This document shows, one piece after another, positions 11,617 through 12,685 of a stretch of DNA of 26,865 nt (position 1 is its first letter; each line of letters opens with the position of its first letter). The DNA lies in the IMG/VR virus record IMGVR_UViG_2541047935_000004; one strand, written 5' to 3'. The stretch comes from a virus. Its lineage: Duplodnaviria > Heunggongvirae > Uroviricota > Caudoviricetes. Position numbers and translations under genes: made by a program. The notes under the pieces are model-generated. The model did not search any database, was not told the origin of the DNA, and saw nothing but the letters and a program-made list of their open reading frames with translations.

Positions 11617-11646
11617 GGGGAGGGCTTAGCCCTCCCTCTTTTTACA
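11617..11646. terminator. Bidirectional intrinsic terminator between the convergent adhesin and esterase genes
   Basis: GGGGAGGGC-TTA-GCCCTCCC hairpin (8-bp GC-rich stem) followed by TCTTTTT on the top strand, with a T-rich tract on the bottom strand as well. Confidence 0.55.
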
Positions 11647-12685
11647 GGTTAGCGTTTGGGTTTTGTTGTTGGGGAGCTGTTTTTATAGGCGCTCCCAGGT
11701 TTTTAGTAAACCACTCAACGACTCTGTTTATAATAATTGGCTGATACCATGTCTTATCGCCATGCTCGGCCCCTTCTACCAGCACGTACTCAGCGTTATC
11801 GCCGTTCTTCTTCAACATCCTGAATAGTTTGGCGCTTTGCTCAGGTGAAACCAGAGTGTCTTTGCTACCATGCATAATAAGAAATGGGGGTTTTACTCCT
11901 TTCATATGTCCGATTGGACTGGCGTTTAGCGCTTTTTCTTTTGACGCTGTGATGGGGGCTCCCGCAAAATTTCTGAATGCAGGGCCATTGATCATTAAGG
12001 CTTCGGTTACGGCAGGAGAGCGATGAACCTCCTGCACTGATTCAGGGAACCCCTCGCCAATATTCAACAAGTCAGAAATCCCATAAAGTGTGGCAACTGC
12101 CTGAACATCTGAGGATTGCTGAAGAAAGTCACCTTTATCAAAGGTTTTGTCACCATTTGTAGTTCCCATCATCTGAGCAAGCCATCCACCGGCAGAGTCA
12201 CCCAGAACTCCGATTCTTTGAGGATCAATCCCATAATTGCTGGCATGCTCTCTCAGGTAACGTATTGCAGCTTTTCCATCCTCAACTGGTGCTGGAAATG
12301 TATCAGGAATTGTTCTGTATTCTACAGCGGCCACAACAAAACCAGCTTCTGCCAGAGCCATTCTCATTTCAATAAATTTGTCATGTTCAGAAGACATGAA
12401 TCCGCCGCCGGGATAATAAATAATGGCTGGTTTTAAATCATTTGTTCGCGGGACAAGAACTGACATGTGAAGCTGTCTGACAGAACGAGTTCCTTTTATC
12501 TGGGAATAAACAACATCACCAATGAGATCGACTTGGTTTCTGGTCGGTGAAACACTAATGATATCTGCACCCGGGGTGTAACCAGGAAGATTAGTCTGGA
12601 CAGGTGTTGCACAACTCCCGACCGACATGGCCATTGACATACCATACAATAGTGTTGCAGATGATAATATCTTGTTAATTTTCAT
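11642..12685 (-). CDS. Secreted alpha/beta-hydrolase-fold esterase/lipase, probable lipoprotein
   Basis: 347-aa ORF with an N-terminal signal peptide and lipobox-like SVGSC, oxyanion-hole-like YYPGGGF, a GDSAGG nucleophile elbow, and a C-terminal MHGSKDTLV...EGAEHGD consistent with the catalytic Asp/His region. Confidence 0.8.
   Translation of the reverse strand: MKINKILSSATLLYGMSMAMSVGSCATPVQTNLPGYTPGADIISVSPTRNQVDLIGDVVYSQIKGTRSVRQLHMSVLVPRTNDLKPAIIYYPGGGFMSSEHDKFIEMRMALAEAGFVVAAVEYRTIPDTFPAPVEDGKAAIRYLREHASNYGIDPQRIGVLGDSAGGWLAQMMGTTNGDKTFDKGDFLQQSSDVQAVATLYGISDLLNIGEGFPESVQEVHRSPAVTEALMINGPAFRNFAGAPITASKEKALNASPIGHMKGVKPPFLIMHGSKDTLVSPEQSAKLFRMLKKNGDNAEYVLVEGAEHGDKTWYQPIIINRVVEWFTKNLGAPIKTAPQQQNPNANL

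Follow-up and report, generated by a model that had tools for sequence, protein, structure and literature searches.

Stx prophages of enteric Escherichia coli encode NanS-p proteins, 9-O-acetyl-sialate esterases without a role in the lytic cycle, and E. coli Aes, an esterase of the hormone-sensitive lipase (HSL) family, is cytoplasmic. BD-FAE is a bifunctional feruloyl/acetyl-xylan esterase with the catalytic triad Ser128/Asp237/His269 (PMC8165983). The Dickeya enzymes FaeD and FaeT have been classed as feruloyl esterases of carbohydrate esterase family 10 (CE10) (PMC10319131), and FaeD is secreted by the Out type II system (PMC9007343). Here we compare with these systems an esterase gene found at 11642–12685, on the minus strand, of a 26,865-nucleotide stretch of lambdoid prophage (IMG/VR record IMGVR_UViG_2541047935_000004; Caudoviricetes), referred to below as the window. 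On balance, we favor a reading in which this is a self-contained prophage cargo gene, encoding an envelope esterase for plant phenolic or acetyl esters and uncoupled from the adhesin gene that it adjoins.

The open reading frame (ORF) is intact, running from an ATG at 12685 to a TAA at 11642–11644, and encodes 347 residues. Its best Pfam family is BD-FAE (PF20434; E = 5.7e-45, 153.9 bits against a cut-off of 26.8), aligned over profile positions 7–214 of 215 (208 of 215), and because this score is joined by a dN/dS of ~0.10 relative to a 94%-identical copy, the ORF is not a chance reading frame. PHROG 3341, named "esterase", matches the protein with E = 1.9e-129. Abhydrolase_3 comes second in Pfam (E = 1.1e-22, 81.3 bits against a cut-off of 25), ~70 bits under BD-FAE. 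By sequence, the closest solved structures are the rumen metagenome esterase Lip_vut4 (6NKF, E = 1.6e-37), Bacteroides eggerthii GH43-CE (6MLY), and BD-FAE itself (6XYC, 6TKX). An AlphaFold model built with 38 aligned homologs (pLDDT 80.5, pTM 0.80) has the strand and helix order of an alpha/beta-hydrolase, with residues 1–28 disordered (pLDDT <50). Foldseek places the same structures at the top (6NKF at E = 2.6e-26; 6XYC, 6MLY, and 6TKX at ~1e-19) among 1439 PDB matches at E ≤ 0.001; the best 50 listed are all esterases, lipases, or carbohydrate esterases, and 6A6O is also among the fold matches.

The catalytic residues were located by HMMER alignment to 6TKX. Ser164 (codon 12194–12196) lies in the nucleophile elbow G162-D163-S164-A165-G166-G167 (12185–12202, minus strand, as are all features of the esterase gene) and aligns with BD-FAE Ser128; Asp276, the predicted catalytic acid in the motif HGSKDTLV (11858–11860), aligns with Asp237; and His308, the predicted base in the motif GAEHG (11762–11764), aligns with His269. 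All three are invariant in the 38 homologs and in every intact variant from viral contigs. The oxyanion-hole loop P92-G93-G94-G95-F96 (12398–12412) is an HGGG-type motif with proline in place of histidine. Its residues G93, G94, G95, and F96 are invariant in the same 38-homolog alignment, and the segment, read as YPGGGF, aligns with the oxyanion loop YGSAWF of BD-FAE. The initial annotation had noted GDSAGG (residues 162–167) and PGGGF (residues 92–96) and proposed an alpha/beta-hydrolase distinct in fold from the SGNH esterases of Stx phages, to be doubted if no catalytic triad could be aligned. The family assignment, the fold matches, and the invariant triad aligned to BD-FAE all agree with that proposal: no SGNH, Lipase_GDSL, or DUF1737 match was found in Pfam at E ≤ 0.01, and the fold matches are all alpha/beta-hydrolases. 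We consider it very probable that the protein is an exported serine esterase of this fold. Two other roles were considered and set aside. A siderophore esterase of the Fes/IroE type was dropped for want of a match to the Pfam family Esterase (PF00756), and a peptidase role was judged unlikely, as the Peptidase_S9 match is restricted to residues 249–331, the C-terminal catalytic half, with no propeller domain.

What might such an enzyme hydrolyze? Free ferulic, p-coumaric, and caffeic acids are the substrates of phenolic acid decarboxylases, and the closest relatives of the esterase outside phages are encoded 12–33 nucleotides downstream of a gene (pad) for such a decarboxylase (PF05870). The spacing is 17 nucleotides for P0004, a 75%-identical protein found on three contigs, and 33 for P0002, which is 79% identical. 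A third such copy, also 75% identical, is carried by pSCU-105-1 (NZ_CP051739.1), a conjugative IncF plasmid of a human commensal E. coli, in the order LysR gene, pad (278.8 bits to the decarboxylase family), esterase gene. Two of the three pad contexts have a divergent LysR gene, one of them being a P0004 contig (L007). More distantly, a Selenomonas homolog (44% identity) also follows a decarboxylase gene (242.6 bits) and an Erwinia tracheiphila homolog abuts a degraded one; in all, the linkage to pad recurs in four separate lineages. An extracytoplasmic esterase freeing phenolic acids and a decarboxylase acting on them would form a coherent two-step pathway. A second line of comparison leads to Dickeya aquatica 174/2, where two paralogs of the esterase, with a major facilitator superfamily (MFS) transporter gene and a LysR gene between them, are both named "Ferulate esterase" in a curated genome: SLM61950 (328 residues, 47% identity) and SLM61953 (P0068; 343 residues, 66% identity). 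Their order fits the published locus tags of faeD (DAQ1742_00888) and faeT (DAQ1742_00893). Dickeya faeD is reportedly ferulate-inducible.

The initial annotation had suggested that the enzyme modifies host or bacterial surface glycans. Such a role finds no support; family, relatives, and gene neighborhoods point instead to plant phenolic or acetyl esters, and we tentatively assign hydroxycinnamoyl or acetyl-sugar esters as the substrate class, an assignment to which we give slightly less than even odds.

Two of these relatives merit separate description. On pSCU-105-1, which comes from the E. coli of a healthy human, the LysR gene is interrupted by an IS3-family element and is followed by pad and then by the lipobox-bearing esterase gene (locus L023, 5498–7646); for an E. 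coli plasmid to carry a phenolic-acid module is itself unusual. An 80%-identical relative (P0003; L011 515–7229, metagenome contig ERZ1034969 NODE_1648) has a SPATE-type serine protease autotransporter (Peptidase_S6) and a regulator of the PerC family nearby, a context resembling a virulence plasmid or island and yet another type of neighbor.

The alternative that fares best is a generic short-chain carboxylesterase or lipase of the HSL type, acting in the periplasm on lipids, xenobiotics, or other small esters and having no link to plant phenolics. HSL enzymes carry their catalytic Asp and His in a DPLxD and HxF context. The esterase reads as a hybrid of motifs: its N-terminal half resembles the HSL family (xGGG, GDSAG), and its C-terminal half (HGxxDxxV, GxxHG) resembles BD-FAE and S9-type enzymes. 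Of the signs of HSL membership, GDSAG is present, Abhydrolase_3 scores above its cut-off at E = 1.1e-22, and the GGG motif typical of family IV is found, with PGGG replacing HGGG; in addition, the best structure match, 6NKF, was deposited as a "lipase", NCBIfam returns weak matches to LipQ, LipP1, and Aes-type models, and many homologs stand alone among uninformative neighbors. On the other hand, BD-FAE outscores Abhydrolase_3 by the margin given above, the Asp and His stand in a BD-FAE/S9 context, and pad linkage recurs across lineages. All NCBIfam matches, which also include HSL subfamilies, the pectin acetylesterase PaeX, and the acetyl-xylan esterase AxeA1, fall far under their curated cut-offs (in bits against cut-off, 54.6/380 for the GTSAG, 47.4/430 for the GESAG, and 32.2/410 for the GCSAG model, and 78.8/350 for LipP1). 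The HSL-like class raised in the initial annotation therefore fits only loosely, with HSL-type motifs in the N-terminal half but not in the Asp/His half and with NCBIfam scores far too low, and we regard a generic HSL-type enzyme as unlikely.

The predicted location of the enzyme follows from its N-terminus, which reads MKINKILSSATLLYGMSMAMSVGS up to the predicted cleavage point and CATPVQ beyond it. Lys2 and Lys5 lie in the n-region, and residues 6–22 form a hydrophobic core (mean Kyte-Doolittle 1.4). The signal peptide is assigned by sequence analysis to residues 1–24 (12614–12685), and signal peptides of homologs end equally far from the conserved LPGY motif. A pattern match identifies the lipobox V22-G23-S24-C25 (12611–12622), in which Cys25, encoded by TGT at 12611–12613, is the predicted lipidated +1 residue and the sole cysteine of the protein. 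The match is to the permissive PROSITE-type pattern {DERK}(6)-[LIVMFWSTAG](2)-[LIVMFYSTAGCQ]-[AGS]-C, with the cysteine at position 25. A signal peptide with a lipobox, as read in the initial annotation, is thus recognizable by its basic n-region, hydrophobic core, and VGSC pattern. Cys25 is kept in 45 of 45 viral contigs, and of 682 E. coli records, 677 contain an exact 61-nucleotide stretch that includes its TGT codon and none has the TAT (Tyr) version. A Tyr25 polymorphism, prompted by the 90%-cluster representative P0001, was accordingly dropped for E. coli after two such 61-nucleotide searches.

Nearly all of the best 120 database homologs (62–72% identity), from Pectobacterium, Dickeya, Pantoea, Kluyvera, Klebsiella, Kosakonia, Rhizobium, and others, have ordinary signal peptides with AxA-type sites shortly before LPGY. 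Because these signal peptides stand at the same position, the family as a whole is predicted to be extracytoplasmic. A cysteine at the cleavage position is found only in the window protein and its nearest relatives, namely P0002 (79%, SAGC), P0004 (75%, STGC), and the plasmid copy (75%, STGC). Within the E. coli phage lineage the esterase is probably a lipoprotein. Under the Lol rule, lipoproteins with alanine at +2 are sorted to the outer membrane; the +2 residue here is alanine, and the inner-membrane retention signal is absent.

The gene is common. At a nucleotide identity of at least 95%, 681 of 5426 complete E. coli genomes carry it, or ~12% of strains; eight sequenced lambdoid phages carry it, including Perceval (strain LF82), 4A7, and Lambda_4C10; and it occurs in 45 IMG/VR contigs, intact and with all catalytic residues in at least 41 of the 45. 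The Perceval copy is 98.8% identical to that of the window and shares its whole upstream region.

This upstream non-coding region (12686–12927, minus strand) moves with the gene, as seen from a block, 11638–12927, shared with Escherichia sp. MOD1-EC7003. It is AT-rich (GC fraction ~0.41) and presumably carries the esterase's own promoter; an AAGG 10 nucleotides before the ATG is the presumed ribosome-binding site. No inverted repeats and no Rfam family were found within 11500–13300. Transcription can be followed in LF82, for which published RNA-seq tables (PMC9928086, S1 and S4), covering growth in LB, in DMEM, and in macrophages, list the Perceval esterase as LF82_159 / PERCE_52. Raw reads in the paired samples were 1650 and 1665 for the esterase and 10 and 17 for ninB in condition B1, 266 and 258 against 11 and 7 in B6, 27 and 15 against 0 and 0 in BLB (LB overnight), 203 and 364 against 14 and 12 in MB1, and 145 and 191 against 30 and 44 in MB6 (PMC9928086). 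After 6 h in macrophages relative to LB (MB6 versus BLB), the esterase was reported with a log2 fold change of 2.26 (q = 2.7e-13; PMC9928086). The Perceval copy is thus transcribed in the lysogen apart from the phage genes and in a condition-dependent manner, in data that describe LF82 rather than the strain of the window.

NanS-p genes sit downstream of stx and the lysis genes, whereas the esterase lies antisense in the nin region. This difference in position bears on whether the enzyme could be a functional analog of NanS-p, deacetylating either the sialic acids of host mucin or the glycans of bacterial surfaces and so feeding the lysogen or remodeling its surface. The family does hold true carbohydrate O-acetyl esterases, with BD-FAE acting on acetylated xylan (PMC8165983) and 6A6O and 6XYC among the fold matches; the esterase is predicted to be envelope-located, both gut and extraintestinal E. 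coli carry it, and the Perceval copy rises in macrophages over LB. Against such a role stand the lack of any sequence or fold relation to the SGNH/DUF1737 NanS-p proteins and the neighborhoods, for in the contexts examined neither the esterase nor any relative is linked to sialic acid metabolism or adjoins sialic-acid or mucin-utilization genes. We consider this analogy improbable, more so than a generic HSL-type enzyme.

The window is organized as a lambdoid prophage, with O, P, a 1302-residue inverse autotransporter, the esterase, NinB, NinE, a YbcO-like protein, RusA, Q, lysis genes, Bor, and the terminase onwards. The esterase gene is placed antisense between the replication genes and ninB and is poorer in GC than the nin genes. 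It is convergent with the gene for the inverse-autotransporter adhesin (7697–11605, plus strand; Pfam IAT_beta E = 4.9e-101, with Big_1 and Invasin_D3 repeats), the two 3' ends lying 36 nucleotides apart. Between the convergent stop codons, a terminator scan finds a GC-rich hairpin at 11617–11637 with its T-tract on the plus strand; this is mainly the adhesin terminator and belongs to the adhesin cassette, not to that of the esterase. BLAST comparison with Perceval shows homology at 6501–7436 (gene P) and again at 11638–14527 (98.75%), the intervening segment 7437–11637, with the adhesin and its hairpin, being swapped for ren, emrE, and the serine recombinase gene ybcK. The cassette junction thus falls at 11638, 4 nucleotides past the esterase stop codon. 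Homology with MOD1-EC7003 begins at the same nucleotide: a 94%-identical block spans exactly 11638–12927 (1290 nucleotides), the coding sequence plus ~240 nucleotides upstream, and there adjoins an emrE-like gene in a locus that also holds bioB, bioA, and a ybhC-like ORF.

Among 44 evaluable viral contigs, the neighbor of the esterase is the adhesin in 26, ybcK with emrE in 13, and emrE alone in 4; in the one further contig the esterase itself is truncated. On the other side, ninB is found in every contig. The adhesin–esterase junction is found in 441 of the 681 esterase-carrying complete E. coli genomes, so that the adhesin is one of three alternative neighbors, present in ~60–65% of cases. 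Because its neighbors are interchangeable and a junction lies at 11638, we take the esterase gene to be a unit of its own, and we are confident that it is an independent moron in the nin region. The initial annotation had paired the enzyme with the adhesin, and one could imagine an accessory that unmasks the adhesin's receptor or processes the adhesin itself as part of one functional module. Their adjacency and the recurrence of the layout in hundreds of genomes and in viral contigs invite that idea; the convergent arrangement into separate transcription units, the recombination junction between the genes, and the ~35–40% of esterase-carrying genomes and contigs that have ybcK/emrE in place of the adhesin speak against it. 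So do the eight GenBank phages with the esterase, which are counted as adhesin-less, the neighborhood having been inspected in Perceval, and the non-phage relatives, which never adjoin an inverse autotransporter in the contexts examined. The partnership is therefore given up as very improbable, and the esterase is taken to be mechanistically uncoupled from the adjacent adhesin. Least probable of all is a role serving the phage, as a superinfection-exclusion lipoprotein modifying the receptor or as a lysis accessory like the mycobacteriophage LysB esterase, for although phage outer-membrane lipoproteins such as Bor (here at 16803–17144) are common and esterases occur in some phage lysis cassettes, this gene lies outside the lysis cassette and antisense to the phage operons, is transcribed in the LF82 lysogen while lytic genes are silent, matches no defense-system model (PADLOC returned no match for esterase or adhesin), and has close homologs that are ordinary chromosomal or plasmid genes outside phages.

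We propose the following model for a cargo esterase of the cell envelope. The gene would act as a self-contained moron, transcribed antisense to the early-right operon of the lambdoid prophage. After export of its product by Sec, signal peptidase II would most probably act as the cleaving enzyme, with Cys25 as the lipidated residue; given the alanine at +2, the Lol system would be expected to deliver it to the outer membrane. The mature domain would be a serine carboxylesterase of the BD-FAE, or former CAZy CE10, type, in which Ser164 would attack the ester carbonyl with His308 and Asp276 as the charge relay, and the oxyanion hole would be built from backbone NH groups, those of Ala165 and of the PGGGF loop. 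Likely substrates would be hydroxycinnamoyl esters (feruloyl, p-coumaroyl, caffeoyl) and possibly acetyl esters, and candidate molecules include feruloylated or acetylated xylo-oligosaccharides and chlorogenic acid arriving at the envelope of the gut cell. Some E. coli lineages would thereby have gained an envelope-bound esterase for esters of plant fiber and polyphenols.

Several observations weigh against parts of this model. With regard to lipidation, the Gly at –2 and the Ser at –1 make for an atypical lipobox. A stricter lipobox rule, [LVI][ASTVI][GAS]C, leaves it outside, and cleavage between VGS and C is also plausible as the work of signal peptidase I; for these two reasons lipidation is probable rather than established. 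Moreover, the database variants P0001 and P0005 have tyrosine, not cysteine, at position 25, so lipidation appears not to be indispensable for the clade. With regard to substrate, the assigned class draws on family membership and gene neighborhood, and BD-FAE-type enzymes deacetylate sugars too; the phage copy has no decarboxylase partner; the Klebsiella, Kluyvera, and Pantoea homologs are solitary genes with housekeeping genes around them; and the D. aquatica paralogs are tied to D. dadantii FaeD and FaeT (Dda3937_01449, Dda3937_01836) by annotation and locus-tag order only. With regard to expression, a consensus scan returned no strong sigma-70 site on the minus strand upstream of the esterase, and the esterase level in LB was ~3.8-fold over the prophage background (PMC9928086). 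This is under the at least 5-fold criterion that the authors applied to morons, which is why the gene is missing from their moron list.

To our knowledge, no gene has been assigned to chlorogenic acid hydrolysis in E. coli. Three human colonic E. coli isolates hydrolyzed chlorogenic acid, according to Couteau et al. 2001 as cited in PMC10340781 and PMC4335975. We speculate that the prophage lipoprotein and its plasmid-borne, pad-linked relative are a strain-specific cinnamoyl or chlorogenate esterase of gut E. coli; this identification is doubtful, yet it could explain strain differences in chlorogenic acid hydrolysis within the species.

The enzyme class, the fold, and the presence of the gene in phages are already catalogued (PF20434, PHROG 3341, "alpha/beta hydrolase" in RefSeq, "esterase" in GenBank phage records), and in this respect our finding is incremental; a literature search for the accession WP_000700202 found nothing. 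New here are the independence from the adhesin, the predicted lineage-specific switch from a soluble to a lipid-anchored form, and the link to pad–esterase modules and Dickeya ferulate esterases. If the model holds, a common prophage cargo gene lets a subset of E. coli, among them adherent-invasive LF82 and numerous isolates from humans and animals, cleave plant-fiber and polyphenol esters at the envelope. Lysogenic conversion would here be metabolic in kind, unlike that brought about by toxins, by adhesins, or by the SGNH sialate esterases that Stx phages carry. On the more speculative chlorogenate reading, a lambdoid phage would give ~12% of E. coli an envelope-anchored enzyme freeing ferulic or caffeic acid from dietary fiber and polyphenols. 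Plant-associated Enterobacterales have a soluble, secreted enzyme, and on this reading the change to a lipid anchor would have been adaptive in retaining the enzyme at the cell. The adhesin and esterase cassettes merely happen to lie side by side, each an independent piece of cargo, and should not be analyzed as one virulence module.

Some further features of the locus and its surroundings may be recorded. The window protein and the Perceval allele differ at six amino acid positions, all of them within residues 311–346, at the 3' end of the gene (window 11642–11760) next to the cassette junction, and ~230 E. coli records are only 90–95% identical over the junction query; this suggests two alleles of the 3' end that track the neighboring cassette, through recombination within the gene end. 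In MOD1-EC7003 (L013 1–8500), the cassette (94% nucleotide identity, lipobox kept) has bioB/bioA upstream and the ybhC-like ORF downstream, these genes being identified by eye from their N-termini, and the locus could represent a lambdoid prophage at the classical lambda attachment region, reduced by decay to its cargo genes.

At 9004–9711, the adhesin gene repeats a 357-bp unit in tandem and in perfect register (2.0 copies, 97% identity), giving two near-identical Ig-like repeats. In at least one other strain, DS566-2, the match takes in the whole gene yet spans 357 nucleotides fewer, which suggests that the copy number of this repeat varies between strains. Coverage of the adhesin reaches 80% or more in just 200 of 561 matching genomes, so that its passenger domain is variable. 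The named E. coli inverse autotransporters are FdeC, YeeJ, IatA, IatB, IatC, and IatD, of 1415, 2359, 465, 725, 2934, and 1747 residues, respectively (PMC6714894); the 1302-residue protein, set apart by reported size alone, fits none of them and appears to be an uncharacterized adhesin cargo gene. Elsewhere in the window, the prophage carries a further lipoprotein gene as cargo, that of the Bor homolog (Pfam Lambda_Bor E = 9.9e-31), which lies antisense and downstream of the lysis genes. At 2456–5041, an IS21-type pair on the minus strand (an IstA-like integrase gene at 4019–5041 and an IstB ATPase gene at 3240–4022) is directly adjoined by a truncated IS110-family transposase ORF (2456–3196), indicating nested insertion sequences in the early region, and the ORF of the replication gene O (5854–6528, 224 residues) looks short.

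How, then, does the window protein compare with known systems? It has in common with the HSL family (family IV; for example, E. coli Aes and EST2) its GDSAG elbow, the GGG(F) loop, the Abhydrolase_3 match, and many family IV fold matches, and departs from it in the proline that replaces the histidine of HGGG and in an Asp/His half resembling S9, DLH, and BD-FAE; unlike Aes, it is predicted to be exported. With NanS-p it shares the status of a prophage-encoded esterase that has no role in the phage lytic cycle, although NanS-p has an SGNH fold rather than that of an alpha/beta-hydrolase, no Pfam domain in common with it, and a different genomic position. The D. aquatica proteins SLM61953 and SLM61950 have signal peptides and the same motifs as the window protein, but theirs are ordinary signal peptidase I signal peptides without a lipobox, and their genes are chromosomal and adjoin LysR and MFS genes. 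The copies on pSCU-105-1 and on enterobacterial contigs flanked by insertion sequences are the closest non-phage relatives (75–79% amino acid identity); they equal the window protein in length, share its catalytic motifs without change, and have a cysteine lipobox that reads STGC or SAGC. In those settings pad comes first and the esterase gene follows it as its pair, whereas the phage copy has an unrelated 240-nucleotide upstream region of its own and no decarboxylase. BD-FAE (6TKX/6XYC) comes from a polysaccharide utilization locus of Bacteroidetes, is only ~25% identical, and has YGSAWF where the window protein has YPGGGF, while the window gene belongs to an E. coli lambdoid prophage and encodes a predicted lipoprotein. 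The two nevertheless belong to one Pfam family and one fold (Foldseek E ~1e-19, TM ~0.8 on the target), hold their catalytic Ser, Asp, and His in the same alignment columns, and are both exported, as predicted in the case of the window protein.

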